NCBI GenBank assembly: GCA_020184695.1
Contig: JAANOX010000253.1
Coordinates: 372,001 to 436,000, forward strand
Reading direction: 5' to 3'
Source: Histomonas meleagridis 2922-C6/04-290x
Taxonomy: Eukaryota > Protista > Parabasalia
Length of the DNA stretch: 64,000 nt
The notes below the pieces were generated by a model that searched no databases, was not told where the DNA came from, and saw only the letters and a program-made list of their open reading frames with translations. Position 1 is the first letter of the stretch. Each line of letters begins with the position of its first letter. Below are positions 3,380 to 60,652 of this stretch, in pieces. The position numbers and the translations under genes were made by a program.

Positions 3380-4539
3380 ATGAGTCTAAACGTTAACAAA
3401 GAAATTGACAAAACACATTTTAAAACTTACAGTCACGTTAAAAAACACGTGCAAAATAAATTTCCAAATGTTAGTGAAAAGAAAATTAAAAAAGTAATAT
3501 CAAGGAGATTGAAGGATAAATTTATTAAAACAAAAGATATAAAACCTTATATGATAAAAATATTTTCAACTATTCCAAATTGTTGGTTTCATGATTTATA
3601 TGATAATGGAAAAAATAAAAATCCTCGTTATTGGCACGTATTTATTGGCACAAATAATAGATACGTTTACTGTTTACCGTTGATGTCAAAATCAGCGTCT
3701 GCTGTTCATGAAACATTAAAACAATTCATTGTCAAATTCCATCCTGTAAAATTAACGTCAGATGAAGAACCAGCATTTATTGAAAAAAATAATTTAAAAC
3801 TTCTTTCTAAAAATAAAGTTGCCGTTCATACTATATCAGACAAAAACCATTCGTCTTTAGGCATTATTGATAGATTCATGCGAACAATAAGAGATATGAA
3901 TACTCCAACGGAAAAATCTAAACATCAATCACATGATGAAAAATATACACATTTATTACTCCAGAAAAAATGAAAAAAAGTTTCTGAATATTTATAATAA
4001 TACTTACCATTCAGCCATCGGTTGTTCTCCAAAAAGAAATGTTTGATAATAAAGATTTAGAGAAAAAGAATATATATGTAAATGTTTAGAATCTTCTGAA
4101 AAACAAAAATGTATTAAGAATTTAATTCTTCCTGTTGGCTCTTTTGTACGCTATATATTACCGCGTCATAATGGCATAACTAAAAAAAGATTTCAAATAA
4201 GTCGTGAATGTTATAAAATTGATGAACGGAAAGGAAATATGTACGTTTTTAATTGCTCAAGACGGAACAGTAATTACTAAACCAAGATACAAACTAATAC
4301 CTATTGGTAAGAATAAACCAAATAATATTAAATGGGCGTCAACTATTCCTGGTAAATGGGTTGGTTCTGTTGAGTCAATTTTGTCATTTAATCCTAAAAC
4401 AAATAAGTATAAAGTACTTTTTTTACCGTTCCTGGGCAACGTTCATATAAAGATGAAATACCAGCGACCTATCTCCGCGGTAATACTCCTCATAAACAGT
4501 CAGAAATTGAAAAGAGAATTTTTTGCTAAACATAAATGA
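3380..4539 (+). CDS. Retroviral-type (rve) integrase, frameshifted in A-runs
   Basis: WFHDLYD / TSDEE / SLGIIDRF catalytic core, followed by an SH3-like C-terminal region (LPVGSFVRYILPR) and a further C-terminal domain. Confidence 0.9.
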
Positions 4540-4559: not shown

Positions 4560-4700
4560 TACATGACAAACTAACTAACTAACTAACCAACTAAAAAAAG
4601 AAACTAGCTAAAGGAAATTCAAAAATTGTTGCGTGAGTTTCTCCATTCATGTGAAATCACTTGAAAATTGATGATTTACTCGACTAAACTCACAAATGAA
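4560..4700. repeat. Left arm of ~125-bp inverted repeat containing (CTAA)n
   Basis: catgacaaactaactaactaac...ctagctaaaggaaattc...gagtttctccatt is the reverse complement of 5995-6698 and 6760-6886. Confidence 0.9.
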
Positions 4701-5960: not shown

Positions 5961-5994
5961 ACAAAGAAACAGTAAAATGCAAGCTTTATTTTTC

Positions 5995-6698
<704 letters not shown>

Positions 6699-6759: not shown

Positions 6760-6886
6760 CATCAGCTCCAGTAAACATGCAATATTCACGTCAAATCACT
6801 AAAATGGAGAAACTCATTCAGCTTTTCCGAATTTCCTTTAGCTAATAACTTTTTTAGTTAGTTAGTTAGTTAGTTAGTTTGTCATG
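6760..6886. repeat. Right arm 2 (direct duplicate of right arm 1, with about 5 TTAG units)
   Basis: catcagctccagtaaacatgcaatattcacgtcaaatcactaaaatggagaaactcattcagcttttccgaatttcctttagcta is repeated exactly from 5995-6078. Confidence 0.92.
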
Positions 6887-7007: not shown

Positions 7008-7115
7008 TAGCGCGGGTGGGAGCGAGTGCGTAGCACGAAGCTCACATAGCGCTGTGTGTGTGTGTCGCTATACACACACAGCACACATTCCACTTTGTTT
7101 CAGTGTGCTGAAGCA
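7008..7115. other. GC-rich multi-hairpin, putative terminal or origin structure of copy B
   Basis: GC island in ~20% GC DNA with stems tgtgtgtgt/acacacaca and gcacac/gtgtgc; resembles 53575-53680. Confidence 0.55.
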
Positions 7116-7622: not shown

Positions 7623-10600
7623 TTAGGCTTTAAATACAGATACTGTTGTATTATCAATAATTGAAGTAACATTTCCAATAATCATACTGTTTATTTTTGT
7701 TGTTAATATAGTATCATCATCTAATACAGTTCCATCATAAAGTATTATATCATTAATATTATATTTACTGCTATCATTAACTATAAAATAATAATCACCA
7801 CAAGTAGCGAAGTCTATAGTATTTTGATTAATACTTATATCTTGTTTAATAGTATCTCCTATTTGAAATATTTCATCAGAAAGATATTTACCAACACAAA
7901 TACCAATAAACTCTCTATATAAACCACGACTTTTTACAGATGGTATACAGTTAGTAGAATCTGTAGTAGAAATATATTTATAAGTCCCATTTTCATTAAC
8001 TAATTTATAAACATTACCTGTTATAAATACTGATTTTCCAATAATGAAATTATCAATATTATCATTTTCAGAAATAGGACTATTATGAGTTATTGTTTTA
8101 TTCATTTGTTCACTTCCACTGCTTGATATTATTGCTACTCTATACTGACTATTAGAATAGTGCCAAAATCCTAATTCATTTTGATAAGAAGCTATCCGCC
8201 AAGTATATGTTCCTGGTGCTGCTGTTGATTGATCATGATATATGAAATCTACAAATCTACCAGTTTTTAATACAGCATTTTGATAAGGAACTATATCATT
8301 TGGTTCATGGGTATGGGAACTAGGTGTAAAAGTTGATGGTTTATCAGTAATATCATTATAACTATGAGTATGACCATTTACTGAGAAAAAACTTACATTA
8401 ATATTATTAATAGAATTACAATTTATATTACCATTATTTACATTAAAACTAATATTACCATTATTATTACTAAGTTTACCAAAATACATAGTATTACCAG
8501 CAGTTCTTATTCTCCAACTATAATCACTATCATCATTACTATCATGAAAATCTATATATTGACCAACTTCCATAACACCATCACTTTTAATAGTAGCTAT
8601 ACAAGGTAAAGTATTTAAATAATTTTTATGCTGAAGAACCGTTATTAATATAATAATAATTAATTTTACCATTAATAGTAATATCATTATCAAATTCTGT
8701 ATGAGTATGAGAACTTGGTGTAAATGATTCTGGTTCATTAATAATATCATTATAATCAGGTTTGTTAATACATAAATTATTAACAGTTCTATCTATATAG
8801 AATTTTTTTATTTCTGGTACTGATAAATCTGTTCCTTGAGAAATACTTATAACAAATTTATTTTTCTCATGAGATAAAGCTGTTTGTTGCCACTTATTAT
8901 TAGATATATGTATTGTTTGGAAATTTAAATAATCATAAGTATGAACATGACTTGTTAAAGAATATCTACCATCATGATTATGAGTTGTTAAAGAGTAATC
9001 ATTATGAGTATGATCTAACGGAGAGTATTTGTCGTCGTGATTATGTGTTGTTAAAGAATACCTACTATCATGATTATGACTTGTTAAAGAAAAACTACCG
9101 ATTCCAATACCATTAATTGATGAACAAGTAAAGTTACCAGATTTATTAAATGAGAATGAAGGGTTTACGTATTCATTATCAAAGAAAAATCTAACTAAAT
9201 CAGGATCACTTGGATGTAAACTAATTCTAAAATGAAAATCTGTCCCTTCTGCATTATTTCGATGATGAAAATCTAAACAATTTGGTATTTCAAAAACACC
9301 TCCACTGATTAATGTGATTGATGGTGTTACTAATAAAGTTCCTTTTCTATTACCGATAGGATAATTATTAATAGTATTCACTTTTATGTTGCCGTTAACA
9401 GTTAAATCGTTATTAAATTCAGTATGAGTATGAGAACTTGGTGTAAATGATTCTGGTTTATTAATAATATCATTATAATCTGGTTTGTTAATACATAAAT
9501 TATTAACAGTTCTATCTATATGTAATTCTTTACTAGTTGGTACAGTAATATCATCACTTTTTGATACACTTATTATTATTAACTTATTTTTAAGTTGATA
9601 TAATGCTGTTTTTTGCCACAAATTATTAGAAATATCAATATTATTAAAGTTTAAGTAATTAAACGTATGAGTATGATCTAACAGAGAGTATCTTTCATCA
9701 AGAGTATGTGTTGTTAAAGAAAAGTTATCAACAGGTATATTATTAACAGTATCAACTTCTACTATATTACCATTAACTTTAAGATCTTGATTTATATTAG
9801 TATATATTTCGTAAATATCTTCTTCCTCCTCTTCTTCATTAATAATAGTATCAATTAAATCCTTATGATATGTAATATTCGTATAATTTTTTAAATCAGA
9901 GCTAATTAAGTAATTATCATGAGTATGATTAATGAATCTTTTATATATCTGACAGTCTACTAATAACATACCTAATTCATTAGTCCTCTGTCCTTTAGAA
10001 ACATCTTTATAATAATATATCAAATTTTTACAAATTACATTCATTTCAGGAAACAGATTTATTAAATAATTATATTCATTTAAACTATTATCGATATCAG
10101 TGTCATCTGGGCCTTCTAAATCATCTAAATTCTCATCTGTTGATATATCATATTCATCAAAAACGACGCTTCTTAAAGTTGGAATTGGTATATAACCTCT
10201 TGCTCCAGTAAATACATTTTTCAATCTACTTATTAACGACATTGCCCAGGAACTATTTTTGATACTGTTATATACTTTAGCAGCAAGTTCAGCAAACTCT
10301 GCTAATGACATTGCATAAGAAAAAGCATCTAATAAATATTCTAGCCAATTCTTTTTATATCCTTCACCATCTTCACCAGGAGCTCCTGTCAATAGTTCTT
10401 GTATTTCATCATCATCTATAATCATTTGTTTTGTTAAATAGTATTCAGAAGTTAATACTTCATCAACATTAACTATACCATAAGTATGTCCACTATCTTC
10501 TAACATGATACTATTACCATTAGAAAAATTAATTAATATTGTTTTCTGTAATACCATCTTCTGTAGTATTATCATAAGTTGATATATTAACACCATTCTC

Positions 10601-11553
10601 AAATAAAATTACATCAGAAATAGTTAAAATACCATCTTCTATAAGAGCTATATTATTTATATCAATTTCATTAATTTTACCATTGACTATAAGATTTTGA
10701 TTAATTAATGTATATTTTTCATAAATATCCTCCTCTTCGTTATTATCATCATGGTTATGTGTTGTTAAAGAAAAGTTATTGACAGATATGTTATTAATAC
10801 TATTTGCTGTTATATTACCATTATCACTAAAACTCATTGTAGAACCACCTTTTGCTCGAAAACTCAGTGTATCAGTTAAAGCTCTAATTCTCCAAGTATT
10901 ATCTTTATTATAATCATTACTATCATGAAAATCAATATATTCTCCGACTTCCATAACACCATCACTTTTAATAGTAGCTATACAAGGTATCGTTATTGTT
11001 GCATTAGAACCCCCATTAATACTATTTCCAATATAATAATTGTTAATTGTATTTGCAACAAGGCTACCGTTAATAGTTACATCGTTATCAATTATTTCGT
11101 GAGTATGATCTATCAATGAATATCTATCGTCATGAGTATGGTTCTTTAATGCAAAATCTTCTGTAGAATAGCCGTTAATTATATCTATTCATAGATTACT
11201 TATACTAACGTTATTATTTTCATTTCACTAATTTTGACAAATTTTTTATATAAAGTCAATACTTTATCAATATCACTAAACATCTGGATTAAATAAGCAT
11301 TATTCATTATATTAGATCCTGTTATAATATCACTTACTGATATATCATTTATTAAAACAAGATTTTTGATGCTGTTATCTAATGGATTGATTATTATATG
11401 ATTTCTTCCATAAGTAAACGCAAATGATTTGTCTATGTAATTAATCGTCAGTGAGCATATGCCGTTACTGATAGTATCAGCTGTTTTGCTATGATTAGAA
11501 TATACAACACTGTTTTTATTTAATGATTTTACTATGGTTTCTAATCTATTCAT
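7623..11553 (-). CDS. Modular His-x-His fibre protein (~1300 aa when three frameshifts are bridged)
   Basis: ORFs 11200-11571, 10529-11116, 8626-10602 and 7623-8750 join by single-base shifts. Repeated HTH/HNHDxRY motifs, repeated PCIATIKSDGVMEVGxYIDFHD and LCINKPDYNDIIN modules, and a C-terminal DFATxGDYYF domain. Confidence 0.75.
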
Positions 11554-11589
11554 TTGATCAACTTTTTCCAATTGTTTTTACAGTTAAAA

Positions 11590-12475: not shown

Positions 12476-14701
12476 TTATAATTCACTCAATGTTTTTATA
12501 GGATCTTCACTATTAGAACATATATTTATATATTTATTATTAACATGATATATATAGGTGTTATCAATGTTTTTACCAATCCACTTATCAGCTGATTTAA
12601 TATATACTTCATTAAATATATGTTCAACCTTAAATTGCCCTAATTTATCACCAATGTATCCTAAGTCTTGCAATTTATTAAATCATCTTCAGATATTAAT
12701 AAAGAATCAACCTGTGAATAATATACATTTGATATTGAGCTTTTGATATAATTCATTTTATCGCTAAAGTTGTTTAGTACTGATCTTACAAATTGTGGAT
12801 AAGTAAAGTGTTCTCTATAAGGTTTTACTGTATATACGTAGTTATCTTCATCATATTTAATAACGTATGAAGCGTATTCTTCAATATATTTATCAACATT
12901 AGTCTTCAATTTCTTACTAAAATTAGGTGGTCTTCTTATAGATGTTCCCCAACAATCATTCATCATAAATATTAATGTAGTAACCAGCTTATTGTTGCCA
13001 ACCTTTTTAGCCTTCATTCTCATATTATACAATAAATCTATAAGTTGCTTTATTTTAGTATTTTCTCCTTTAAAAGCACCGTTATCATCTGGTTTACCTG
13101 TAGGTATTGATATTACAGATGACATATAAGCACCGTTTAGATCTATATAATAATATTTCCCAGTTAAATGTATTTGTTGCCATATAATTTTGAGAAATAT
13201 ACATTCATTACGTATTTTATTAGCAATATCATCTGATAACTCATATACACCTTTGAAACAACCATATTCATACATTATTTTTAACATTAAATCAGTATAT
13301 CTATAGTATTTGACAACATCTATTTTATGAGATGTATTTTTAGAAATATTTATATCTATCAAAGTTTGTAATTCATTTATTCTGTATTTTATTTCTTTAT
13401 CATCATCTAATTCATAACCAAATAACTTTTTGCCGTGTTACATTCTTTTAACAAATTTAGGTATAAACTTCTTATCAGGAATATTAATTAATCTATAGCT
13501 GTTATAGAGTTTATTTACAGTTTTATAGCTCCAGCATAAATTATTGTAAGTATTAATATTCATAGGTTTTAATAAGTTACATTGCTTCATAGTATTAATC
13601 AAATAATATATAGATATTGTTTTATCAGCATGTTCACCCGAAGGGTTCAAGCCAATAAATTGGCGTTCTATAGTATTATTTTTACTATAATTTTTAATAC
13701 TGTCAATAGATATATTAACACTTTCATTTAACATATAATGATTATATATAATTATTAATTTTATAGTTTTATCATATTCTTTTCCATAATCTCTGTGAGT
13801 AAAACCTTTATTAGCCATATATCTAATATTATGAATTTTTAATAAATCAGATATATATTTTAATTGTTCTAATGGAACTGTATTAGTATTTATAAATGAT
13901 CTTAACATATTAATTTCATTATCTGTAGTTAAATTACTTGCAATAAATGATTGTATCAAACAAGACTCATTGATGCGCTCATCGTTGGCGTCACTGAAAA
14001 TACCGTATTTTGTAAGATCTATGTCAGTAGTATTAATATATGGAAAGAATCCTGGATTAACTCTTCTACCGCCTTTCAAGGTTCTGAACTCGAATTTTAT
14101 GGATTCAATGTTATTGAAAGTTTCCAATGCTAAAGTATTACTGTCACTAATATTATTTTTTTTATTAATAATAGAATATAAGAAATTAACTGTATTCATA
14201 TTTTTAATTATAGTTAGATATATCATTATCATCACTAATTACAGTCATTCTAATATCTTTATTTATCTTAGCGCCAACTGCTTTTATAGCATGCATTAGT
14301 GCGTATAATATATCTCTTTTGTTGTCGTTATTATTATAAGTAAAATCTTTCTGAGTCATTAATTTTTTAATTGATTCTTTTATTATATTGTTAACGGTTT
14401 TATTCCGGTTTACAGGTTTCTCTACAGGTTCATCTTCAGATAATGCTATATTATAATAATCATCAAATGGATCGCTCTCTGAGCTTAAGCCACTGAAGTG
14501 GTGATCTTTATATATATTCACTACGTTTATTGTGTTTTATTTTATATTGTAATTGATTAACTGATAAACAATTTTATTAGTCATTTCATCATATACCTTA
14601 TAATAAGTTTTAGTATTAATATGTTGAAAATTGTCTGGTAGTGTATAACCATATTTATTGAACAATTCTATTACTTGTTTTGTTGTTAGCTTCTTTGGCA
14701 T
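12476..14701 (-). pseudogene. polB: Compact family-B DNA polymerase, fragmented
   Basis: Motif A YIDLNGAYMS, motif B FMMNDCWG, motif C YYSQVDS, LGQFKVE. Start MPKKLTT at 14701. Homolog at 58376-60652. Confidence 0.8.
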
Positions 14702-15953: not shown

Positions 15954-17096
15954 TTATTCTTTATCAAAATATTCCTTTTCAATATTACTCATTATTTGAG
16001 TAGTATTACCCCGTAAATAACTTACTGGTATAGTGTCTTTATAAGGTTTTTCGCCAGGGACTTTAAACAATTCGGTATATTTGTTTTTGGCCTTGTCATA
16101 ATCTAATATCTTAATAATTTCACCATTCCATTTACCTGGTATAGTGTTCGCAAATTTAGGTATATGTTTGTCTTTATTGTTAACAACAATTAATTGAACA
16201 CGAGGCTTAGTTATCACAGTTCCATCTTTAACAATTAGTGTATACATATTACCTTTACGATCATCAATTTTATACATATCTCTACTAATCTGATAACGTT
16301 TTTTATGAATTCCATCATGACGTGGTAATATATATCTAACATAAGAACCTACTGGAATAATTAAATTTTTTATTCTTTGTTGTTTTTCTGCTAATTTTAA
16401 GCATTTAAATATATACTCTTTTTGCAAGTCATTATCATTAAACATCTTATCTGGAGAACAACCTATAGCAGAATGATAACTGCTGTTGTAAGTGTTTATA
16501 AATTTATTCATCCTTTTTGGTGTTATGTAAGTATATTTTTCATCATGAGATTGATGTTTAGATTTCTCGTTTGGAGTATTCATATCACGTAATGTTCTTA
16601 TAAATCGATCTATAATACCTAAACTACTATGGTTTTTATCTGTAATAATATGCATACTAACATTATTATCAGTTAATAGTTTTACGTTATTTTTATCTAA
16701 GAAACCAGGCTCTTCATCAGATGTTAATATAACATAATGATATTTATTAATAAATTGTCCCAACGTGTGGTTGATGTCTTTAGCAGATTTGCTGCTCAAA
16801 AAATATACTACTACATATCTATTATTAGTTCCAATAAATATATGCCAATAACGTGGATTATGTTTTCCGTTATCGTATAGATCATGAGACCAATTATTAG
16901 GTCTGTTACTGAATATTTTTATCATATATGGTTTAATGTCTTTTCTTTTAATGAATATATCTTTTAAACGTTTCTTTATAACACTTTCAATTTGTTTGCT
17001 CTTAACGTTTAAATGCTTATTTTTTACATGTTTCTTTACATGCTAATAATTTTTAAAATGCGTCTTATCAATAGTATCATTTATAGATGTTTGCAT
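15954..17096 (-). pseudogene. rve integrase (381 codons, in-frame TAG at codon 18)
   Basis: WSHDLYD / TSDEE / SLGIIDRF; collinear with 3380-4539. Confidence 0.9.
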
Positions 17097-20025: not shown

Positions 20026-20688
20026 ATGACATATGAAATGTACGCTCCACAAAATCAACAACCTAATGTTATAGATGCTATGTCAGGCAATTTAGAAGAT
20101 TGGTATAATGCTATAGATGATAGTATAAAATTATCAGAAATTATACCTGGTGAATATGAATATACTACAGCTACTTCTTACGGAAATGTTGGTGATATTA
20201 ATGAAGGTGATACTACCTATGTTGATATTGCAACTGATAGATTTAAAATTATTAGTTTAGATAATTCATATATCACATTAAAACAACAAATAACTATTAA
20301 TATACCAGCACAAACCAATTGTTTATTTGGAGAATATTATATTGGTTATAAGTGTTCATGTGATGCTATAGATCAATATAAAATTTATAGTAATACTGAT
20401 AAAATACAAGATATACATAATGCTAGATATGAATGGTTTATGTTTTATAATAGTTTATCTGATGAAGCTAAGGCTGATATTGATTGTTTTGCTACGATAG
20501 ATAAGATAAGAAATCATGATCCAATGGTTCCTGGTATATATCTTGACGTATCAGAATTATATGCTGCTACTGATATTACTATAGAAATTCCTTTACGAAT
20601 TCCTTTGTCTTATTTCTTATTATTATTTAACATGAGATATTATCCAAATTGGGCTGGTAAATTATCAATAGGGTACTCTCCAACCTAA
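20026..20688 (+). pseudogene. Putative MCP, N-terminal part, truncated at 20671
   Basis: Collinear with 1-776 up to GKLSI; homology ends abruptly at gggtactctcc. Confidence 0.65.
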
Positions 20689-22049
20689 TGGGAGAATTTG
20701 AATACCTTGCTTTCAAAAAGTGAGGATACCTCTCAATTATGCGTGATTTTTTGAATACCATTGAAAAATTTCCATTCAAATTATTTTTGTGAGAAAATTT
20801 TCTATCTCAAATTTGATTTCGATGTTTTACATCTTTTGTCATGAAAATTTCTAAAAATCTATAAAATTTCATACAATAAATTGTGTTTACAGTCTTAATC
20901 ATCATTGTTCTATTTGTTTAATTATATATACGAAAAGAACAAAAAATAACAACATGATTGAGACATTTTTATGAGCAATGTAATTATTTTCTGCAAACAA
21001 TAATAAAATTTGTTTCTTTGAATCTTTATTGAATTATTTATCCACTAAACTTAATTTTTTTTTATTAATCATTTAACTAAATATAAAATATAAAAAAAAT
21101 TAATAAATTAACAAGTTAATTTATATTTATATGTTTATTATATAATAAGGCCAAACTAAAAACTTTTATCTGGTGCTTAATACACAAATGTATTATTCCG
21201 CCTTTTTGGTCTTCTTCTTGGTTTCTTATTCCCATTATTCGTGTATTTTTTTTCTCATTCTGTTGTTGTTCATTTTTATCACTTTGTTCTTTATTAGGTT
21301 GTTCAACTTTAACTTTATTGTTATTATTATTTTAGCTATAATTATTTTGTTTCCTATTTGGTCTTTCAACTTAACTTTACATTTATTATTATTTTGGTTA
21401 TTTTTCTTTTATTATTATCATTTATTCATTTCAATTAAATCCGCAATTTTGAAATCAAGTAAATCATCTTCTTCTTTATTATTTTTTTTTTTGATGTTTT
21501 GTTTATTATTATTCATCTTATTTAATATTATCGATTTTTTAGTATTATTTTTTATTATTTTGATTTTCCTTTCATTTTAGTTTTAATAATATTTTTATTA
21601 AATAAATACCTTTAATCAATTCCAATACATGAATCATTAAATATATACAAATAACAGTTTTTTCTATAATGATTTCATTACTTTGAAGTATTCAATAAAT
21701 ATTCTTTTCATTCACTTGAATTCGTCGAAATGAATAAATTTTATTATTATTAGAATTACTTATAAATATATAAAAATTTTGTTGTTGATATTTAATATTA
21801 TTGTTGCTATTATTATAATTATTACTATTGTTAATAGTATAAATACTATTTCCAACTTCTACTGATATTAATCATAAACGTTAATAAAATTTATTTTTAT
21901 TTTCTTTTAATTCATATAAATTTACTGAATAAATTAACATTTTATTTTTAATATTATTTAAATATTTAGTAATATTTTTACTTAATATTAATTCAGCAAA
22001 AGTTCGAATATTTTCTATTTTCTTTCAGCAAATATTTTATTGGATTTTG

Positions 22050-25395: not shown

Positions 25396-26395
25396 TTAAT
25401 CATGGCAATCAAAGAAATTGATTTTTATATATTCCAATTCTTCATCTTCTATTTCATCGCAATCCATCACTTTTGTAAACTTTGTGTCTGCAATTAATTG
25501 AACTGCTGCTCTAAACATTTGATTTTGATTGTGAATTACATTCCATCTCCACATGAATTCTGATATATGTTCATTGACTTTGTTTTCTGGGATTTCTTCA
25601 TATTTTTTATTAATTTTTTTTAGTTCCCTCCAAAGTCTTTCTATCATTTGAGTGTGCGCTTTAGTTTCAGGATCAACAAAATTACATGAATGATTCACAG
25701 TTTCATGCTCGTAATCATTGTCATCATCAAGAAAAACATATGCTTTCCAGCAATCAGAAATTATTTTTTGTTTCAGGTAATATATGATTACGAATCTCTT
25801 CTTCTAATGTTTCTCTTGTTCGATCTGGCACAACAAGACAAAAGAATTGTCTATCTTCAACACAAATTCCAAAAATCCATACTTGATTTAACCCCCGTTC
25901 AACATTATACTTTCTTCGACACATTAAAGTTTCATCTATTTGAACAGTTTTACCTGGACCACCGACAATAAGACCTTCTAAAGATAAAACATATGCATCA
26001 CATGCATTTCGAAATAATGCAAAATAATATGTTACAGTGCTTCTGCTAACTCCTACTTCTCTTGCAGTATCTTTGCATGAATATTTATATGCCCAACAAT
26101 ATAATAAATGAGAAATTTTTGATAGAGGAATTTTTGCTGAATAAAAAATACTTCCATATATAATGCTTTTGGTTTTATGACATTGTGGGCATATCCATTT
26201 ATACCCAAATCCTTTTGAGAAATCTATGTAAATCTGCATATTGAAATTGCATTCTTCACACGTCATTTGATTGTAAATAACACCATTTTGTATTGCAAAT
26301 TGAATTGCTGCGTCTTCGTTAGTAAAAAGCCAATAATAAGCAAGAGTACTGTCAATAAATGGAAATGAAGATTGCTGAGGCTGATTGTAATTCAT
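25396..26395 (-). mobile_element. Merlin / IS1595 (ISXO2-like) DDE transposase, single +1 frameshift near 25765
   Basis: Zn ribbon CEEC...CPQC, VQIDETLMCRRKYN, IISDCWKAY, VNHSCNFVDPETKAHTQMIERLW. Confidence 0.92.
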
Positions 26396-26544
26396 AATAG
26401 AAAATATATATTAAACGCATAATATGTAAAATATTGAATTATATTAATGCATTTGAGTAACATTTATTTATTAGTTCGAGTTAGTAGTAAGTAATGATTA
26501 TAATTAACAAAAATCAATTAATTTATATGTAATTTTGTATAAAC

Positions 26545-28485: not shown

Positions 28486-29599
28486 TTTTGGAGAGATTCG
28501 GATATCTTAACCTCCTTCTTACAACATGATTCTATAGTTTATAAAAAGCGTTATTTTAAACGTGCAATTTGGATGAATGAATTTTGAGCTAAAATTCAAG
28601 CAATTATTCATCCAAACTCACAACAAGAATATGAAGAAGCCACCAAACTTTAGTTTTTTGTAGAGAACAAAATTTACAATTTTTTCTTGAATTGATTTTT
28701 TTCATCATGAATCAATTCAAATAGACATGTTACTTTCAATTCTGGCCTGCCAATCAATTAGTTAGAATAAGGTAAAAATATCAAAACCGCTTTCTGCTGC
28801 TGTACCTTTTAAAAAAGAAAGAGTGCTAAAAAATTTAATTTTTCAAAAAACAAAAGAAAATATCAAAAACATGATACGAGCAGGCTATGAAATGCCTAAA
28901 AATATGAACACTATTTAATAGAAACTATGATAAAGAGAACGTTAATAACGGTTGCCGAAACGATGGATGGTACCTTGGGCTCAAAGCAATTTTAATCAAG
29001 TAAAACACTTTGCAGAAACATTTGTTATTGTTCGTTCTAGGAAACGAAGCAATGGTAAAAGCATTCTCGCCTCAAAGCTGTTGAATTTTTAATTACTCAA
29101 AGCAATCAGGAAAAGGAGTTTCAATCAAAGCATCTGTGACCCGAGCCAAACCTGAAATCTATGCATAATTTCGTAGTCATCAAACATTTCCACATTTAGG
29201 AATTAGATGAGAGTTCCCCAACATTTTTTTTGTGGATAACATTTCACTGATTATTGATTTTGGACATTAACTACGTCTAAATATATATATATATATAGGG
29301 ATTTATGGGAAATATTTATATACACCGAAATGAAAAACATAATATATATATTATTTTACTTTCTAAATAATCTCATGATTTATTCTTTGAGAAGCAATAA
29401 TTTTCATATATCATGTGAACAAGATGAAAAAGGAATAAATTTTGTGTTCACTTCCATCGATAATTCTTGTAGAAGTCTTGGGCAAGCCCACCCATCCCTG
29501 ATTTGCTTGAGCTTATGAGTCTAGATCCATGTGCACTGTTCTTTCGCGAATCTTGATTGATTTCAGAAGGATCAATAAATTTCTTTGTTTTGGTTGTCA

Positions 29600-30010
29600 T
29601 GATATTTTTGTTACTGAACACCTACTTTGTGTTTGGCCAAACATTTGAAAACTAATACATTACTCTTGAATATTTGAGTTTGCATGGATTTAGGTTCCCA
29701 TATCTAGAAAAATTTAAAGACAGAAAAAGGCTTGTTGAACATCTTGTCGAGAAATTTATTGTTGATAATTGTTGTGTATGTTGTTCTTGTCAATACAAGC
29801 AACTTTCTGCCATTTGTGATCACGCAATTTCTTTTGAGGATGAAACAGCATATTATTACTCACTTGGAACTTATGTTTGTGAGTACAACCACTGCATTGA
29901 TGAAAATGATGAAATGCACTTATGTTCGATGAAGGGCATAAAATCTCTGTCTTTATCAACGCTACCGATAATTTACACATTCAAGCAGCCAAAAATAACA
30001 GTTTCTTGCC
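29600..30010 (+). pseudogene. Rei1/ZNF622-like zinc-finger fragment, copy 1
   Basis: LHGFRFPYLEKFKDRKRLVEHLVEKFIVDNCCVCC...DH. Confidence 0.7.
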
Positions 30011-35500: not shown

Positions 35501-36094
35501 TTATTATCTAGTATAGCATTTGTTGATAAAATTCATTATATTAATAAAAACATATTGTAGAATATAATGAATAAAGTTTGTATTAGGGTTTATTGGCTTA
35601 AAGTTAAATTTAGCCAAGACATTTGTTAATTTTTTTAGATTGATCTGTCTAGTTTTGTATTCAATTATTTTACATAATACGCTTGTTGATAATTTCAAAA
35701 TTGATCTAACATTCATGAAAATTAAAATCGAATTTTTTTTTAAAAGTTAACAAATAAATCGAACCTATATTTCACTAAATTAATATCCATCAATATGTTA
35801 ATAAAAATTTCGATTTTCTACCAATTTTGATACATTCTTCTTGTACGACTTTTTGTTTTCCAAAAATACAAGCTTTTATGAACCACCAGATATATATGAT
35901 CGAACGATATTGTGTCAAATGGAAATTTTTTTAGTTGAACGAAAATGTCCAACAAAAAAATGGAAAATTCAACAGAAAAAACATAAGTTTGAGTCAATAT
36001 AAGTGGACGTCGAAAAAGTAGAATCAATTTCGTTTACATGCAAATTTAACTATATGATTTTGAAAATCTGTTTAATGTTTCTTGTATGATTTTA

Positions 36095-36865
36095 ATGAGC
36101 GGAATCCCTTGTAAAACTTGTCGTATGCGTTTTAATACTATCACTGAAATTTCAAATCATCAACCAAAATTAACTCTTGAAAAATTTTAAGCCAAAAACG
36201 CAGAATAAGCAAAAGAAGGCGCTGAGAAATAAGTTGCTGAATACAAGCATCAAGAAATCATTAAAGTGGAAGAATTGATGGCGAATTAGATGAGTCTCAA
36301 TGTTGTTATTTTGGTTACTAAATGTTTACTTTGTGGCTAAATATTTGAAAAAGAATAGATTACTCTTGAACATTTGAGTTTGCATGGACTTAGTTTCCAA
36401 TATCCAGAAAAACTTAAACATAAAAAGGCTTGTGGAATATCTTGGCGAGAAAGTTGTTGTTAGTAAATGCTGTGTGTGCTGTTCTTGTCAATTCAAGACA
36501 TTTTCTGCCATTCATGATCACGCAATTTCTTTTGATGAAGAATCAGCATATTATTACTCACCAGGAACTGGTGCTTGTGAGTGCAACCACTGCATTGATG
36601 AGAATGATGAAATGCGCTTCGGTTCTATGAAGGACACAAAATCTCTGTCTTTATCATCTTAACCGATAATTTACACATTCAAAAAGCAAATAATTGGTCA
36701 CCAGGTTTGAATAAGTGGCAATTATAAACTGTCCAAATGACATCTTCACAGCGCTGAAAACGACTGTAGCGCTGATGTTGCTGAGTTTCCTTTGCGCGGT
36801 GCAGCTCACTGTGCGCATAAGCATCAGTAAAAACTCTTAAAATTTTGTGTTTGGATTTTTTATTC
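36095..36865 (+). pseudogene. Rei1/ZNF622-like gene, copy 2 (near full length)
   Basis: N-terminal MSGIPCKTCRMRFNTITEISNH, then CLLCG...EH..LHG and EYLGEKVVVSKCCVCC...DH. Confidence 0.75.
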
Positions 36866-36877
36866 AATCAAAGCATT

Positions 36878-37482
36878 TCATTCCTCCTTATCAGGTGGAG
36901 GAACGCGGCCAAGATCATTCAAGATCATGAAGCGGAAGCGGCACTGCGTGTTCAGCTTGTTGCCAATTTTCTTTGAAATTGTCACCCAATCGTTGCCATA
37001 GATATTATGCAACTTGATCAGCTCCTTGTCTTCTTTTAGTGTCCAATTTCTTTGCATCATTAAATTACAAAAACCATTTCCCATCTCTGCCTGCATTGCA
37101 GACCACTTCTTCCGTTTCCTACGAATTGGGCGATCCGGCTCCAATGCCTGCTGAACAAGTGGATGGCGCACAGCAAGCGTGCGTCTTCGATATAGAGCCA
37201 ACTGTTTATATTATTTAGGTTTCTTTGGTGAAATGGTGTGTCTATGAATGGAAGTGGAGGATAGTTTTTGCATATTAAGATATCGTGGAGGCATATGAGA
37301 GCTATGTTGCCCATTAGGAACATGTTGATGTGGTTTACTGCTGCGTTTATGTCTCCCTGTTGCTCTATAATCGCTGTCAAGCTTTGCCTTATTTGCCCTA
37401 TGACATTTGGTGGGTAGATGCCATCGCTAACAATGATCCAGAGACAGAATTCGACGAGGTCGTTGTGGTTCGCATTGATCAT
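36878..37482 (-). pseudogene. Trichomonad-type R2R3 Myb protein, frameshifted near 37070
   Basis: EDARLLCAIHLF...WSRIAQFVGNGRSGLQCRQRW / WTLKEDKEL...YGNDW...QCRFRF; Inr-like tcacttcatt upstream. Confidence 0.85.
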
Positions 37483-37859
37483 GCTTGTTTGACAATGAAG
37501 TGATGATGACCAAGCGGTCAATTTTGTTACAATTTTCTTTAAAGTTAAAAAGTTTATGTTAACCTGTCAAACTGACGGTTGTCCGGATTTTGTATACATT
37601 TTTAACTGTAACATTCATAAACTAATTGTAAAAAATTATCACTTTCCGATCAGTTTTAATAGAATCCGTTCAAAAAATGAAACCGATACTGCCGATAATA
37701 TCGATTTTTTCAATAGTTTATGAAAGTTCTTAAAAAAATTTTGTTCCGTTCAACCCTACAATCATCGATTCCCGTTATTTTTATCCCCAAAATTCATAAT
37801 TTCTCTGAAAAAGTGGCCGTTACTTCACTTCCATAAATGTTCGCCCTTAGAACATGGCC

Positions 37860-38445
37860 GTGCACAAGCCTATGATCATCACTTAGATGGTGGCTTAGTG
37901 CGTGCTAGGAAACAAAGGGTGCATGGATGGTACCATCGGTAAGGGAAGATGGAACTCGTGCTGATTTCATAATATTTTAATATCCATAAGTATGATCAGA
38001 ACACTTTGGTGGTCTTTTGGGGTGGTGAGACCGTACAGTTTGATGAATGCCCAACATCAGAACAAAAATTTGAATTTTGAAATATTTCAAACCAAGATGA
38101 CAATGGAAGAAGAATGTTCAAAGACAAAACACTACATTAACCCACAACGATGAAGGAAATATGGAGATTGGAGATGTGCGCGATTAGATATAAGATAGTG
38201 GAAACTTATTTTGTCACAACATGAAAAAATGGGTTTGTAGCATGTAATAACTTGGTTACTTGGTGTAATTGTAAGGTATCATATCAGTTAGAATATCTCT
38301 AATATCATATGAAATTACGATTGTTATTACAAAATCTGGTTGATTACATGAGTGGAAAAGAGGTGATTGATAACATCATAAAATAGAATATGATTCATAT
38401 TTTTGTTCCTCTTCTTCGGTGATCATAATTTTTAATTCTGGCATG
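37860..38445 (+). pseudogene. Unidentified degenerate gene, duplicated in inverted form at 42025-42600
   Basis: cttagatggtggctt...gaaggaaatatggagattggag...gaatatgattcatatttttgttcctcttct is shared with the reverse complement of 42025-42600. Confidence 0.6.
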
Positions 38446-39276
38446 CTTTATACTATTGTGCAAAGAGATTGAAATCACAAGAAGCAGAATTCAGGATATG
38501 AAACTTTAAATTTAAAGTTCTCGAATTTGATCGGCAGAAATCAATTCAATACCTTCTGAATATTCACCTGAAATGAATCAAGAATTGTGTTTCTTATCAA
38601 AAAGCAGACGTTGTTGGATGGAAAGTCTCGAAGCTTTTTGAATTAAAATTGAGGTGTCGTTCGAAAATTAACGCTGAAGAATTCCGCCTTTCTAACTTAT
38701 AAAACAAAAGAACTTCAAGCACCCTGAATCCTAAATGAGTTACACCAAAATGAGAAAATATTCAACCAAACAGTCTGATTTTATGAAATTGAACTCCTTC
38801 TGAAGAATTTATGAAAAGGTTTTTAAACATTAAATCGTATCATTGTTATGAAGGATGTCTTTGAGTAACAAAGTTGAACAAAAATCATCCGAATTGTTTG
38901 AAAAAAGCTTGTGATTAATTTCACAACTCTTTTCCCCAAATGTTTACGCAAATAACATTAAAGAATGCTTTAAGGTGGTGAAGGCTTTCATAAAGATGTT
39001 GTAATTTGAGATATAATTACAAATTGATTCTTTAATTGAAGTTGAGACGAGTTTATCATACTATTGAAGTTTGTTCCACTCCACGCAATAAAGAGAGTGA
39101 CAAAACCTTTGATCGGGAAGAAATCGAGAAACAGCGGATAATGTTTGCAGTACTTTATTTCCATTGATCACTTCATTGATTCCTCTGAAAAACCCTGTAG
39201 CAGGAAATTCTTGTGTATTTTTCGAAGTTGATGAATTAAATGATAATGTGACTATAAATTTTTAAAACTAATTTTT

Positions 39277-41039: not shown

Positions 41040-41990
41040 GATATAAACGTCTGATGTATAGCATCCATGAAAATGCCCAAAAAGCCTCACCCACTTTTGG
41101 AGGCTCATTTCCATGATATCTAAATCTGAATGTATTCATTTTCTGGAATTCACACAGAGAATTTTGAGTAATTCAAATGGCATTGTCATTGGATCTGAAA
41201 TCAAAACAGGAATACACCCGAAATAAGTTGTATCGAAAACTCTTTTGTTTTGAAGAATAAGGTCACCTCTTGGGCAAACACAAAGTCTGAACTCATATAA
41301 TATTGTGGAAGTAATTTAACAGTATCTATGATGGATGATTTACTTCTACGAAAAAGTAATACTTTACCGCGCGTCATGTTTTGTATAAGAGAAGTTGCCT
41401 TTGACGAACGACTTTACTTGTTTTACTGGCAACACCATAAGTCTGTGCAATAAAAGCAATGTAATTTCGTTTGCGAGTCCAATTGATTTTGTCTGGATGA
41501 TAATCTCGAAAATATGAAACGAATGGAATGACAATATAGTGACCATTCCATGTTGTACCAGAATTATGAGATTGAGGATTTGGACGAACGATGAAAAAGT
41601 TGTGATGATAAACAGACTGATGACGAGCATTATTACCGTAACAAGTTTCGAAAGATGTGTCAACAACGTGATCAGAGCCATTCTTGCGATCATACCATAT
41701 GAGTTATATATGTAAATTATTAAAAAAAAAAAATAAACGAAAAACTGTTTAGACGAATCAATGACGTAAAATCAGATTATTTGGTTTAGTATTTTCTCAT
41801 ATTGGCAAAACTCAATTAATGATCCATGGTGCTTGAAGATTTTTTGTTTTGTTAATACAGAAAGGCGAAACTCTTGAGCGTTATTTTCCGTACGAAAAGT
41901 TTCAAACACCGCAAAACCACATTTTGATAAGAAGCGCAATCTCAATTTACTTTTGTTCGAGCTAACCAAATATTCGTCCATTAATATCCA
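41040..41990 (-). pseudogene. Exostosin-family (GT47) glycosyltransferase, fragmented
   Basis: RKNGSDHV and MSSD(FC)VCPRGD...RVFDTTYFGCIPVLISD...PF. Confidence 0.8.
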
Positions 41991-42024
41991 ACGTAAAATT
42001 GAGTGGTTTTTTATCGTCCAAATG

Positions 42025-42600
42025 CGAGTAATGATCAGAATTAAAAATTATGCTCTCCAAAGAAGAGGAACAAAAATATGAATCATATTCTATTTCATGA
42101 TGCTATTAATCATCTCTTTTTCACTTGTGTAACCAACCAGATTTTGTAATAACAATCAAAATTTTAACTGTTATTAGAGATATTCTAACTGATAATAATA
42201 TCCAACAATTACACCAAGTAACCAAGTCGTTACATGTTACAAATCCATTTTTCAATATTATGACAATATCAATTGATCCAATATATCAAGTATTATCTTG
42301 CATACCTCCAATCTCCATATTTCCTTCATTGTTGTGGGTTTTGTGGTGTTTTGTCTTTCAACATTCTTTATCCATTTTTATCTTGGTTGAAATATTTCAA
42401 AATTCAAATTTTTGCTGTGATGTTGGCCATTCATCAAACACTAACCCTTTGTCGAACCCAAAAGACCATTCAAATGTTCTTTTGATCATATTTATTGATA
42501 TCCAAATATTTTGTAATCAACACGATGTCCATCTTCCTTTACCAATTGTATCATCACTGCACCCTTTGTTTCCTAACACACGCGAAGCCACCATCTAAGT
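42025..42600 (-). pseudogene. Inverted duplicate of 37860-38445
   Basis: Nucleotide similarity as noted for 37860-38445. Confidence 0.6.
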
Positions 42601-42874
42601 GGATCATAGTTTTGTCGTGTGAACATTTATGGAAGCGATGTTCCACCGACCACTTTCCAGAAAAAAGCACAGAATTTTTAAATGAATGTTCTGGAATTTA
42701 TGGTCACAAAAAAATTGTAACGAAATACGTCAACCGCAAATTTCAAACAAAAGTTGGAATTTTAACAGGTATTATTTTTACATTATCAAAAAGTTATCGG
42801 AAGCTTTTTTACCCTTTAAGAAAATTGTATCAAACTTGGCTGCATGGCCATCATCACCTCATTATCTAATAAGC

Positions 42875-43468: not shown

Positions 43469-43479
43469 AGAAGAATAAG

Positions 43480-44100
43480 GTAATTCATTACCTTTGGATT
43501 TAATAAACAAATCCAAACACAAAATTTTAAGAGTTTTTACTGATATTTATGCGCACAGTGCGCTGCACCTCGTCAAGGAAACTCATCAACTTCCACTCGA
43601 TGCGATGTTATTTGTCCCTTTTATATTTGCCAATTGTTCAAATCTGGTGGCAAATTATTCGAAAATTGACGGTTACGATGATAAAGACAGCGATTTTATT
43701 TCATTCATCGGACATAAGTGCATTTCATCATTTTCATCAATGCATTGGTTGTACTCACAAACACAAGTTCCCATTGCGTAATAATCTGGTAATTCTTCCT
43801 TAAAAGAAATTGCGTGATCACGCAATGGAAGAAAGTTTCTTGAATTGACAAGAACAACATACACAACAATTATCAACAATAACTTTCTCGACAAGGTGTT
43901 CAATAAACCTTTTTTTTTTTTTTTTTTTTTCTAGATATGAAAACCTAAATCCATGCAAACTCAAATATTCAAGAGCAATGTATTTGTTTTCAAATGTTTT
44001 TGCAACAACGAAATATTTAGTAACCAAAATCTCATGCCATTGAGAATCTTCAACTTCACCATCATCATCTTCCTCTTCGATTGCAATATCAATATCATCA
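43480..44100 (-). pseudogene. Rei1/ZNF622-like gene, copy 3 (5' part deleted)
   Basis: LHGFRFSYLE...EHLVEKVIVDNCCVCC; near-identical to 48635-49055. Confidence 0.75.
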
Positions 44101-55149: not shown

Positions 55150-55620
55150 TTTTCTCAATACTTTTTGGTAAAGTTAAGGTAATTCTTCTAGCTTTCATAT
55201 ATATATTATTGAATCTGGTGTGTTGATCTTTGATTTTATGATATTCATTCCACATCTTATCAACATTAAAATAACTAGGAGGACTATTTTTCATTAACTC
55301 ATAAAAACATTCTTTTGATATGCCTGGAAATAATATTATATCACTTAATGTTCTTTTTAGATCTTTAGGTATAGATTTTACAGTTTGAACACATATAACA
55401 ATTAATTCAAAAAATGGTTCATTAAATATAACTTCCTGATATGCAGATAATTTTTAATAGGAGCTATAAAAGCACATATACCATATCGAGATAAAAGGTA
55501 TTCCTCATGAATAGGTCTAATTAAAGCATTATTTAATACATCCTTATATAATTTTACTTATATTATTAGAGTTATCATCAATCTCTTTAAATTTACTATC
55601 TTTATTTATCATAAATACTT
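55150..55620 (-). pseudogene. A32-like (FtsK/HerA) packaging ATPase, C-terminal remnant
   Basis: IVICVQTVKSIPKDLKRTLSDIII-FPGIS fits the sensor-Q and Arg-finger region; Walker A is not recognisable. Confidence 0.55.
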
Positions 55621-56255: not shown

Positions 56256-56710
56256 ATGCCAAAGAGATTAAATACTAAAACAGTTAAAAATCTATATAAT
56301 AAATATGGATATACTCTACCAGATAATTTTGAACATATAAATACTACTATCAAATATAAAGTATTTGATGAAAGAAATAATAAGTATACTAAATTATCGT
56401 ATAATCAGCTACAATATAAAATTAAGAAAGGTTTATCAGAATATGATTCATTTGATGATTATTATAATATGGCTTTTATCAGATAAAGAATTTGCAGAGA
56501 AACCTGTTGGAAAAAATAAATCTATTAATGATATAACTAAAGATTTAATAAATAAATTATTATTACAAAAAGATTTTACTTATAATAATATTAATAAATA
56601 ACATAACATTATATTATATGCTTTAATGTATGCTATTAAATCAGTTGGTGCTAAGATCAATAAAGATATTAGAATGACAATAATTGGTGATGATAATAAT
56701 ATATCTTACT
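56256..56710 (+). pseudogene. PolB N-terminal fragment (copy-B subtype)
   Basis: MPKRLNTKTVKNLYNKYGYTLPDNFEHINT...QKDFTYNN...AVGAKINKDIRMT matches 14204-14701. Confidence 0.8.
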
Positions 56711-56718
56711 ATCATGCC

Positions 56719-56976
56719 TCATGAAATTTTGTTCATGCATTTTAAGATTCTTGAATTTTTGTCAAATTCTTTTGGCAAATCCTCTCCTTCAGCAACAGTA
56801 ATCTCGCAATTGCAGGCATTTACTACAAGTATAATTCTTCCTTTTGCAGTATTTGGTATTGGCTCGTAAATCTTAACATTTATTCCATAATAGACATCAA
56901 ATAATAATTCTAAATTAAACCTTTTGGCTTTTTTAAACATTTCAGGACGTACAGCAATGACATATTTATTACACAA
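56719..56976 (-). CDS. Hypothetical protein (85 aa; possibly the 3' part of a longer gene)
   Basis: Open ORF with ordinary amino-acid composition; no family recognised. Confidence 0.4.
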   Translation of the reverse strand: MCNKYVIAVRPEMFKKAKRFNLELLFDVYYGINVKIYEPIPNTAKGRIILVVNACNCEITVAEGEDLPKEFDKNSRILKCMNKIS

Positions 56977-58300: not shown

Positions 58301-58375
58301 AAATTAAGCTTAATTTTTATTATGTCATATCAACCGAATATAAATTTCATTTTTAACTCATACTCATTAATTTTT

Positions 58376-60652
58376 TTATCGGATTACTTGAATTTTCACA
58401 GTATTCTTTAATTTTTGGCGTGCAATAATAATAATAACTTTCTTCTCCATGCTAACCGATCCAATTTTCAGGAGATTTAAAGTATACCTCGGTGAAAACA
58501 TGTTCAATCTTGAATTTGCCGAGTTCATGAACACTTGGTCATGACCAATAAATCCTTTATCTTTCGATACCATAAAATCTTACTCTGATATTAACGCAGA
58601 ATCAATGTTTGAATAATAAACTAACGAGATTCCTTATTAAATTCATTTTTTCATTAAATTTATCTAAAACACTTTTCGCAAATTGAGGATAAGTGAAATT
58701 TTCGACGTAAGGATTCAGGGTATCGACAAATCCTGAAATTCCGTCTGAATTGTACGTGTATTTTAATACATAAGGCGCGAATTCATCAATATACTTATTA
58801 ACGTTATTTACAAATTTATGTTTTATAACTTTTGGCTATTGTATTGAAAAACCAAAACATGAATTCATCATGAATTTCAGTGTTATTAACAATTTATCTT
58901 TTCCCGATAATTTGGCTTTCATTCTTGCTTTATATAATTTTTCTATTGACTTATTAATCTTGGTGTTTTTTTCTTTGAAGTTTCCGTCGGCGTCATGTAA
59001 TCCAGCAGGAATTGATTGAACACTTGATATATACGCTCCGCATTTGTCGATATAATAAAGTTTTTGTTTCGAATAAATATTTCTCCAAATAATTTTCGGT
59101 GTTTGAATTTCAGATATTATTTCATCTGTGCAATCTCTCCGGAAAATGAATATACATTATCAATACATCCGAATTCAAACATTATCTTTTGCATCAGCTC
59201 AGAGAATTTATAATATCTTGATACATTAATTCTTTTACTTAATTTCAACGAATCAATAACTTCGTGAAGTTCTTTTAATGTCTCCGGGATAATTTATTTA
59301 TCCGGACAGTATCCGAAGAAACTTTTTGTTTAATTAACTTATTTATAATATAATGATGTAGGTTTTTTATCAGCAACAAATATTTTTCTATAAAGATAAT
59401 ATGTTTTGACGTTTGATTTCATATAACTCCATGAAAGCTTATTTATCGTTTGTTGATTAATTGGAATTAATAAATTATTTTCGATCATTATATATATTGA
59501 ACTATTTATACCCCAACATTTTTTAAAGAAAGAATATATTTTGTTGTCGAATTTAAATAACATCATTTATCTGTTATGATTTCTAAATCTCAAATCAGCA
59601 TTTATATTTTCATTATCCTTTATATTACATTCCGATACATTATTTTTAAAATTCGGCATATGATGGTCGTCTATAATTATTAGTTTTATTTCTCTGTTGT
59701 AATTCTCACCAAATATCTTGACACGCGTATGTTTTGTTTCGAAATTAAATATTTTGACTTCACTTTTGATTTTTAATATATCAGAAATTCTTTTTAACTC
59801 ACTTCTTGGAACCGTTCGAGTTCGAATAAAACTCTTCAACATTTTTAATTTATCTTATTTCGATGCTTCCGATACAATAAATGCTCGAATTAAACATGAT
59901 TCATTTATATTAGAATCATTAACGTCTGTAAATATTCCAAATTTTCTTAAATTAATATCTGACGTGTTGATGTAAGGAAAGAATCCTGAATTTATTCTCT
60001 TACCTATATTGAAATCTTTAAAATCAGAACAAATGGTTTCAATGAATAACATATATTCCAACACAACATCGTTTGTATCACCAATCACTCTATCATTATT
60101 CAAGCCAGCACGTATAAATTCAACTGTATTTTTATTTGCATGTGAATATTGTTCTCTTCCATCTTCATCAATTAAAGTTAATTTTATATTTTTATATATT
60201 TTATATGCTGCTGTTTCAATCGCGTACATCAAAGCAGAAAGAAATGTATCAATACTTCCTTTATTTTCAAATGTAAAATCTTTTTGTTTCATTAAATTTT
60301 TAATTATTTTATTTGTTACATTATATACTTCACGTTTAAAATCTTCCGATTCATTTTTGAAAAATTCATGTTTTTTTTTACTGAAACGTACAAATGAATG
60401 TTTATTTTTGAACTCATTATCACTTAATGGAAGATTCATTAAATTATTAATTTCCTCGGTGATGTATTCTGCTCTTCCTTTTGATATTATATATTTTAAC
60501 TGATTACCACTTAATCTTACATAATTTCGATATTGTTCGTCATAAACTTCAAGTGGTGTTGAAGTATTTATATAAACGAAATTTTTCGGTAAAGTGTATC
60601 CGTATTTTTCAAATAAACTTCTAACTGTTCTTTTGCTCGATCTTTTTGGCAT
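58376..60652 (-). pseudogene. polB: Compact family-B DNA polymerase, fragmented
   Basis: YYIDKCGAYISS, LKFMMNSCFG, YPQFA, YYSNIDS, LGKFKIE; N-terminal NESCLI...DDHHM. Confidence 0.82.

Follow-up and report, generated by a model that had tools for sequence, protein, structure and literature searches.

A predicted minimal family-B DNA polymerase without exonuclease or TPR1, present as dead copies among Maverick-like elements

Two decayed polymerase genes in a mosaic of Maverick-like elements

The window, the whole 64,000-nucleotide stretch of DNA analyzed here, consists of rearranged pieces of several Maverick-like elements. Three copies of one reduced polymerase gene lie in it, designated B, C and D, together with genes typical of such elements (Table 1). 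Copies B and D, whose proteins are 40-47% identical to each other, are both dead. The reading frame of copy B is broken by stops at 14539 and 13440 and by frameshifts near 14205 and 12682, and that of copy D by 10 stops relative to its homolog P0007, plus frameshifts. Short-read contigs, from runs that may come from the source sample itself, are identical to copy B over the 12682 frameshift and motif B, and the stop at 13440 is absent from most short-read contigs of related copies. The lesions of copy B therefore look real and specific to this copy. The sequencing runs listed as containing such sequences include no RNA run. A few contigs of related copies come from a single run whose RNA origin is a guess, which says nothing firm about expression.

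Table 1 Positions of the polymerase copies, of the parts of copy B and of neighboring element genes in the window.
Feature	Position	Strand	Basis or remark
Copy B, reduced polymerase gene, pseudogene	12476..14701	-	80% identical to intact 733-aa P0002
Copy D, same gene, heavily decayed pseudogene	58359..60652	-	about 62% identical to P0007
Copy C, fragment covering just the N-terminal part	56256..56736	+	
Copy B: predicted terminal-protein (TP/D1) domain, beta-alpha-beta-beta-alpha-beta	14082..14404	-	models; profile match to pre-vOTU domain; bounds approximate, frameshift within
Copy B: D-S motif Ser (S189 of P0002) in the loop ahead of the last strand, candidate priming (linking) residue	14140..14142	-	Ser/Thr in 64/64 rows
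Copy B: G-F-F-P-Y motif at start of vOTU domain, candidate self-cleavage region	14038..14052	-	
Copy B: vOTU-like cysteine protease domain	13725..14052	-	Cys codon 13960-13962, His codon 13738-13740
Copy B: linker at former exonuclease site	13160..13725	-	no Exo motifs; about 190 aa, where full-length relatives have 351-439
Copy B: polymerase motif A, DLNGAYMS	13120..13143	-	Asp in 34/34
Copy B: 11-residue loop replacing TPR1, flanks IPxG and NxKI	13063..13095	-	alignment; TPR1 profile 0/34
Copy B: motif B, degraded, family Lys missing	12946..12972	-	
Copy B: TPR2-equivalent segment, kept	12810..12935	-	spacing and profile match; bounds approximate
Copy B: motif C with second Asp only	12703..12723	-	Asp codon 12706-12708
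Copy B: LGQFKVEH, KSADKW, short C-terminus, most of thumb gone	12476..12645	-	
Element copy B: rve-type integrase	15954..17042	-	Pfam rve E 1.8e-5, under curated cut-off; paralog 3380-3973 passes
Element copy B: predicted major capsid protein gene, 5' part	20038..20700	+	66% to L037 540-aa protein
Element copy B: fragmented fibre/tail-repeat-like gene(s)	7623..11577	-	tblastn; PHROG tail matches on intact homolog
Element copy C: A32-like packaging ATPase fragments	55163..55536	-	Pox_A32 on intact homologs

The initial annotation had placed the motif A aspartate about 61 residues before the motif B asparagine, and the distance is exactly 61 codons in both copies (13143 to 12960 in B, 59048 to 58865 in D). 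The motifs it had read, DxxGAY, MMN(D/S)C(W/F)G, YYS(Q/N)(V/I)DS, LG(Q/K)FKxE and a tryptophan at the KxY position, are likewise present in both. Some are partly decayed forms, as the nearest intact relatives read K(F/Y)MMNS(C/S)WG and YSK(V/T)DS and the wider family mostly YxN(I/V)DA. The tryptophan proved to be a trait of a subfamily, found in 13 of 34 family members, with tyrosine in 18.

Intact relatives and three classes of polymerase

Copy B, read through its stop, was used as a query and returned 152 matches, of which the best 120 were examined. P0002 was the closest among the matches listed. About 110 of the 120 are near-copies of one type, and in this highly redundant set the A-to-B spacing was 61 in 119, the remaining one having missed the motif B pattern. 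A diverse set was obtained by a profile search of 50% cluster representatives with a profile of the family of copies B and D (class III below). The best 150 of its 1287 matches were used; 69 new sequences of at least 650 aa (80 shorter ones were dropped) and six from the copy B search made up a set of 75.

These sequences fall into three classes, which form a graded series of losses. Class I (n = 30) comprises proteins of 957-1464 aa with 351-439 residues from the vOTU His to motif A, 134-144 from motif A to motif B and 129-179 from motif C to the end. All 11 class I proteins scanned matched DNA_pol_B_2 or showed its motifs (8/8 in one Pfam scan). Class II (n = 11) is without an exonuclease and keeps an insert of TPR1 length, with an A-to-B spacing of 90-135. 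Class III (n = 34) has 169-234 residues from the vOTU His to motif A, 52-62 from A to B and 57-101 from motif C to the end, apart from one partial protein with 21. Class III thus accounts for 34 of the 75 sequences, with a median core identity of 43% and pairwise values of 26-80%. The intact relatives of copies B and D are about 700-860 aa long and share a common design. In a metagenome scan that yielded 55 loci, at least 34 carried an uninterrupted open reading frame of class III design; the record titles of 18 of the 55 say human gut.

Class II forms a second unannotated group (P0232, P0239, P0240, P0245, P0247, P0260, P0261, P0277, P0278, P0292 and P0299). Its members have a short thumb, and none of the nine scanned gave a Pfam match. 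P0232, with a spacing of 90, keeps the TPR1-length insert only partly.

Pfam and PHROGs gave no PolB match for the ORFs of the window or for the reduced homologs, and relatives were not found in three scans of viral_contigs. Sequence searches of the PDB returned nothing, or only a match at E 0.11 to motif B of E. coli Pol II.

Losses and retained residues in the polymerase core

Relative to full-length proteins, class III members are shorter by about 200 aa in the exonuclease, 80 aa in TPR1 and 70 aa in the thumb. The ExoII pattern was present in 29/30 class I, 0/11 class II and 0/34 class III sequences. No class II protein and none of the 34 class III members was matched by an Exo profile that drew on 29 full-length relatives, in agreement with the initial reading that an exonuclease is lacking. 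A TPR1 profile matched 6/11 class II and 0/34 class III sequences, and in the alignment the TPR1 gap of class III lies between the conserved flanks IPxG and NxKI, which are connected by a short joining loop. Only a little thumb had been expected after LGxFKxE, and in P0002 about 47 residues follow that motif; 77 aa follow the motif C aspartate, versus 129-179 in full-length relatives.

TPR2 is kept in class III. The distance from motif B to motif C is 79-97 aa versus 93-106, and profile-profile comparison of the segment gave E 5e-5 to the full-length class and 1e-9 to the intermediate class, with nothing from a reversed control. A single-sequence TPR2 HMM had no match in either reduced class, and the P0002 model is of low confidence in this segment.

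The motif A aspartate, the fingers arginine, the motif B lysine and the second motif C aspartate were each found in 34/34 class III members; copy B itself has lost the motif B lysine. The retention of only the second catalytic aspartate in motif C, first noticed in the two window copies, is a family-wide trait. The first is replaced by N in 26/34, K in 7/34 and W in 1/34. Further deviations are DxxG in place of DxxS (23/34), Thr or Cys in place of the motif B Asn (14/34) and the disappearance of the GGR motif before motif A. For one divergent pair, dN/dS was 0.16 in the palm, 0.17 in the vOTU domain and 0.34 in the TP domain, which was the least constrained in this single comparison.

As read from the sequences, class III is a real, conserved and non-proofreading minimal PolB architecture without exonuclease, TPR1 and most of the thumb. 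A common design in diverged copies had been taken to argue against decay, and this held: intact homologs have identical losses, both exonuclease and TPR1 being absent from them.

Structure model of an intact relative

The model of P0002 has a mean pLDDT of 66, with C-terminal palm blocks at 85-94 and a low-confidence middle region. It contains a PolB palm. In a fold search the best solved-structure match was phi29 polymerase (Z 15.6, rmsd 8.5, 286 residues aligned), and the 18 top rows were PolB-fold chains. The best viral match, in BFVD, was the mavirus pPolB (E 2.4e-12 over 723 columns). Fold and catalytic residues together identify the protein as a family-B polymerase. We hold the identity and architecture of the reduced polymerase family with high confidence.

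The N-terminal half contains a vOTU protease and a predicted terminal-protein domain

The N-terminal half, left uninterpreted in the initial annotation, contains a vOTU protease and, ahead of it, a domain at the position of a terminal protein. The vOTU Cys and His are present in 75/75 diverse homologs. In the model, P0002 residues 213-328 match many OTU chains at Z 4-5.4 (best Z 5.4, rmsd 4.0, 91 residues aligned).

One column of the pre-vOTU domain, in a flexible loop that precedes its last strand, is Ser or Thr in 64/64 rows. In profile comparison the TP region matched the pre-vOTU domain of class I with this Ser aligned (probability 93.6, E 2e-7; 0.2 for the reversed control), and a TP-region HMM directly matched 9/11 class II and 5/30 class I sequences. 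When the TP domain was modelled alone from 64 rows, the pLDDT was 88 and the order of elements was beta-alpha-beta-beta-alpha-loop-short helix-beta. PRD1-like terminal proteins are described with the same order of strands and helices and with their linking residue at the same position (PMC11161782). Against the PDB, this model had a best Z of 4.7 with nothing standing out, and among the 50 matches listed there was no little-finger/PAD chain, by which that fold is not excluded. In BFVD, mavirus pPolB (E 0.16) and an adenovirus terminal protein (E 0.24) were matched only at non-significant levels. The assignment of the TP fold thus draws on position, homology and the order of elements. By profile and model, the domain is homologous to the D1/TP domain that precedes vOTU in polinton-type pPolBs, and its hydroxyl residue lies between alpha2 and beta4.

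A small well-predicted domain precedes the TP domain in P0002 (residues 1-60) and is duplicated in tandem in P0016. Between L023:8136-10547 and L037:9292-11784, vOTU and palm are near-identical (dS 0.01-0.04) and the TP region has a dS of 0.30, a contrast suggesting that the N-terminal part was swapped between elements.

The host element

An rve integrase and an A32-like ATPase beside the polymerase are the mark of Maverick/polinton elements, and both were found. Across the 55 loci, the neighbors included integrase-like genes at 18, an A32-like ATPase at 32, a 540-aa capsid-like protein at 23 and a fibre-like gene at 4. The 540-aa protein scored 0.97 in the Atlas to a Preplasmiviricota cluster with Capsid_N on 24% of its members, which serves only as a lead towards a double jelly-roll major capsid protein. 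Genes for DUF3839, DUF4108 and KilA-N lie nearby, and the supplement of PMC12289875 lists these as TvMav genes. These genes, together with the predominance of Parabasalia, on few records, among the phyla of the three nearest Atlas clusters, point to a parabasalid protist as the likely host of this Maverick/polinton-like integrating element.

In nine of the 55 loci the element starts with (AC)nAG, each time behind a different flank, which indicates separate insertions; each of the nine shows one end only, and no locus spans both. In the window, position 7072 may be the left end of the copy B element. Two types of terminal sequence follow the (AC)n tip, one in L010 and L022 and the other in L011, L016, L023, L031, L034, L036 and L037. 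End-like (AC)n/(GT)n motifs stand back to back at 7049-7081 of the window with 6 bp between them, and at 53577-53637 such motifs point towards each other over 61 bp. In L037 (L037:1-1932), an inverted piece of a second element, carrying capsid-like and coiled-coil genes, adjoins the (AC)n end on its outer side, so that one element has been inserted into another.

A gene for an S3H helicase with primase-like motifs was seen at two of the 55 loci, L042 and L026, and most loci end before that position. The two proteins share DxD, SxH and D motifs, read by eye, and the PHROG "DNA primase" matches on them cover the helicase part. The helicase gene was not found within the window. A Ulp1-type maturation protease gave no Pfam or PHROG match among the ORFs scanned, in elements that are incomplete.

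Descent of the reduced polymerases

Trees were built on 305 shared columns that exclude TPR1, Exo and TP; branches are long, mavirus and PLVs are absent, and the set was collected with the class III profile. Class III lay on one side of a single branch with support of 98 in the 75-row tree and 99/98 in a 35-row tree, and classes II and III were separated together from class I with 100 and 100/99, respectively. Class II as one clade was not rejected by the AU test (p 0.31), so class III is either nested in class II or its sister. With the root assumed to lie in class I, the exonuclease and much of the thumb would have been lost first and TPR1 later. The relatives found by sequence are full-length polinton-type pPolBs, which suggests that the exonuclease loss was separate from that of mavirus, itself absent from the tree.

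Comparison with known systems

The full-length Maverick/polinton pPolB (TP-vOTU-Exo-PALM; DNA_pol_B_2), examples of which are also reported in Trichomonas and Tritrichomonas, is homologous to class III over TP, vOTU, the pre-motif-A helix, fingers, TPR2 and palm, and the elements have similar gene sets. The two differ in motif C, YQDTDS in the full-length enzyme versus YSK(V/T)DS or YxN(I/V)DA in class III, which also is without a Pfam match. Metamonad pPolB2 is reported to have conserved exonuclease motifs (10.1101/2023.08.22.554363), and metamonad Mavericks are described as still unclassified (10.64898/2026.06.19.733378).

Mavirus-type pPolB (TP-vOTU-PALM; "PRT-pPolB", pMVRE group 1) resembles class III in its TP-position domain, active-looking vOTU, exonuclease remnant, missing first motif C Asp, rve integrase and separate S3H helicase (DUF5906), the last seen at only two of the class III loci. 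It differs in TPR1, which is gone from class III; according to PMC11161782 and PMC13215967, PRT-pPolBs, that of mavirus included, retain both TPR1 and TPR2. T. vaginalis and two T. foetus genomes are among those screened in PMC13215967 and do not appear on its list of positives.

The pPolB-S1H fusions of PLVs, Tlr1 and transpovirons likewise have an exonuclease-less palm behind a vOTU domain and a replaced first motif C Asp. Their A-to-B spacing differs, being about 106-108 in one transpoviron and one PLV palm by hand count versus 52-62 in class III. Membership in this group was rejected, as there is no fused helicase and complete class III proteins end 57-101 aa after motif C; a weak search among longer proteins found no C-terminal SF1 helicase fusion.

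The piPolB of pipolins shares with class III a single motif C Asp and a non-canonical KxY. It is described as lacking a TP while having TPR1, TPR2, a KTRG motif and an exonuclease that is active (PMC5695915), the opposite set to that of class III, and membership was rejected because class III is without exonuclease, TPR1 and KTRG motif. The phi29 DNA polymerase differs in having a proofreading domain and in working with a free TP, which docks on TPR1.

Exonuclease loss with a companion helicase is already known from mavirus and the pPolB-S1H fusions, all described with TPR1 and TPR2; TPR1 is treated as the docking site of the primer protein and as diagnostic of protein-primed polymerases, and exonuclease-less forms are said to keep it (PMC11161782, PMC13215967). 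The available text of PMC10120064, 10.1101/2024.03.23.586382, PMC12289875 and PMC4409740 has no mention of a TPR1-less enzyme. The literature covered, which lay outside subscription papers, bioRxiv supplements and alignments within figures, held no report of a TPR1-less pPolB. As far as these sources extend, the TPR1 loss appears to be new. Class III offers a natural minimal PolB core, with graded relatives in which the steps of loss can be studied. It also adds to the unclassified metamonad Mavericks, many of them from gut metagenomes, a replication gene missed by Pfam.

A proposed mechanism and its alternatives

The copies in the window are best explained as dead copies of a Maverick/polinton-like polymerase whose intact relatives likely prime on their own tethered TP domain, an explanation that we consider reasonably probable as a whole. 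Class III falls outside canonical protein-primed PolBs by its absent TPR1 and exonuclease and likely works like one. The palm would be active with two aspartates, that of motif A and the second of motif C; activity with one motif C Asp has been shown for piPolB (PMC5695915). The invariant Ser/Thr would be the linking residue, charged with the initial nucleotide opposite the (AC)n end. Sliding-back initiation makes use of short terminal repeats. With the primer domain covalently tethered, the TPR1 surface on which phi29 docks its free terminal protein would have become dispensable. The vOTU protease would then sever the primer domain close to the G-F-F-P motif and leave it on the 5' end, and error-prone elongation would proceed with unwinding by the element's separate superfamily 3 helicase, as proposed for mavirus. 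To this mechanism of priming in cis we give somewhat better than an even chance. Against it stand, besides the TPR1 loss, the few direct TP-profile matches in class I (5/30), the weaker constraint on the TP domain, the helicase gene seen at two of 55 loci and absent from the window, the changed motif B Asn and the lost GGR motif. A diverse, actively inserting lineage that lost TPR1 and kept primer domain and protease raises the question of whether TPR1 is needed once the primer is tethered.

That the enzyme may not be protein-primed, as the initial annotation proposed, is now less well supported, given the N-terminal vOTU dyad, the domain with the invariant Ser/Thr and the (AC)n ends; the proposal survives as an alternative through the primase-like gene at two loci. 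The palm would then extend RNA or DNA primers from the element's primase-helicase, with the TP-like domain kept for end binding, packaging or another job. The TPR1 loss is a real argument against protein priming and the strongest one, because phi29 depends on TPR1 both to bind the TP and to stabilise the primer (PMC6921018). TPR1 is absent in 34/34, and this alternative also gains from the primase-like motifs of the L042 and L026 helicase proteins and from a TP fold unconfirmed against solved structures (best Z 4.7). However, Ser/Thr in 64/64, the vOTU dyad in 75/75 and the repeat-tipped ends are what protein priming predicts, and a primase alone does not solve the replication of linear ends. 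Moreover, the annotation of TvMav3 elements in T. vaginalis lists a primase beside a polymerase B (supplement of PMC12289875), so a primase by itself does not mean that protein priming has been lost. We regard priming from such primers as unlikely.

A second alternative keeps protein priming for initiation only: the enzyme would put the first nucleotides on the TP domain, and this short primer would pass to a primase-polymerase/helicase or to host polymerases. It would fit the loss of exonuclease, TPR1 and thumb, which are DNA clamps in phi29, beside a retained TP, vOTU and catalytic residues. But TPR2, the element of processivity and strand displacement, is kept, and the similarly short exonuclease-less pPolB of mavirus (617 aa) is treated as a replicase (PMC11161782). 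Such a role is improbable in our view. In its most specific form, a palm reduced to about 230 residues between motif A and the C-terminus would be a "protein primase" that only nucleotidylates its tethered TP, cleaves the TP free and hands replication over to a primase-helicase or host polymerase; this too we think improbable. If true, a polinton-like virus would be priming with protein in the absence of TPR1 and would have separated initiation from elongation.

A catalytically dead palm, retained to scaffold either the protease or the TP domain, could be read from the replaced first motif C Asp, DxxG in 23/34, the eroded KxY and the missing Pfam PolB match. Yet the four catalytic and fingers residues are invariant in 34/34 at 26-80% identity, palm dN/dS is 0.16 and the same motif C Asp is missing in the active piPolB (PMC5695915), which makes this very improbable. 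Independent deletions in two decaying copies, to which the pseudogene state of both could point, or an assembly artefact can practically be discounted: at least 34/55 loci have an uninterrupted ORF of the same design, independent decay of B and D is ruled out by intact homologs with the same losses, and the short-read contigs, possibly of the source sample, agree with copy B across the 12682 frameshift and motif B.

Elsewhere in the window, an HNH_3 endonuclease gene lies just downstream of copy D (57839-58273, minus strand) and has a homolog at L042:117-731. Two pieces of an IS1595/ISXO2-like transposase (25396-26410, minus strand) adjoin a long 8-bp tandem array that starts at about 26400. 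Inverted and direct 120-bp repeats ending in (TTAG)n, at 4562-4683, 5994-6116 and 6760-6886, are probably the ends of another mobile element. Duplicated and inverted blocks of host-like genes occur at 29595-29977, 36052-38792, 41758-44081 and 48632-49265, and within them are ORFs that we take, from their motifs, to be Myb-like.
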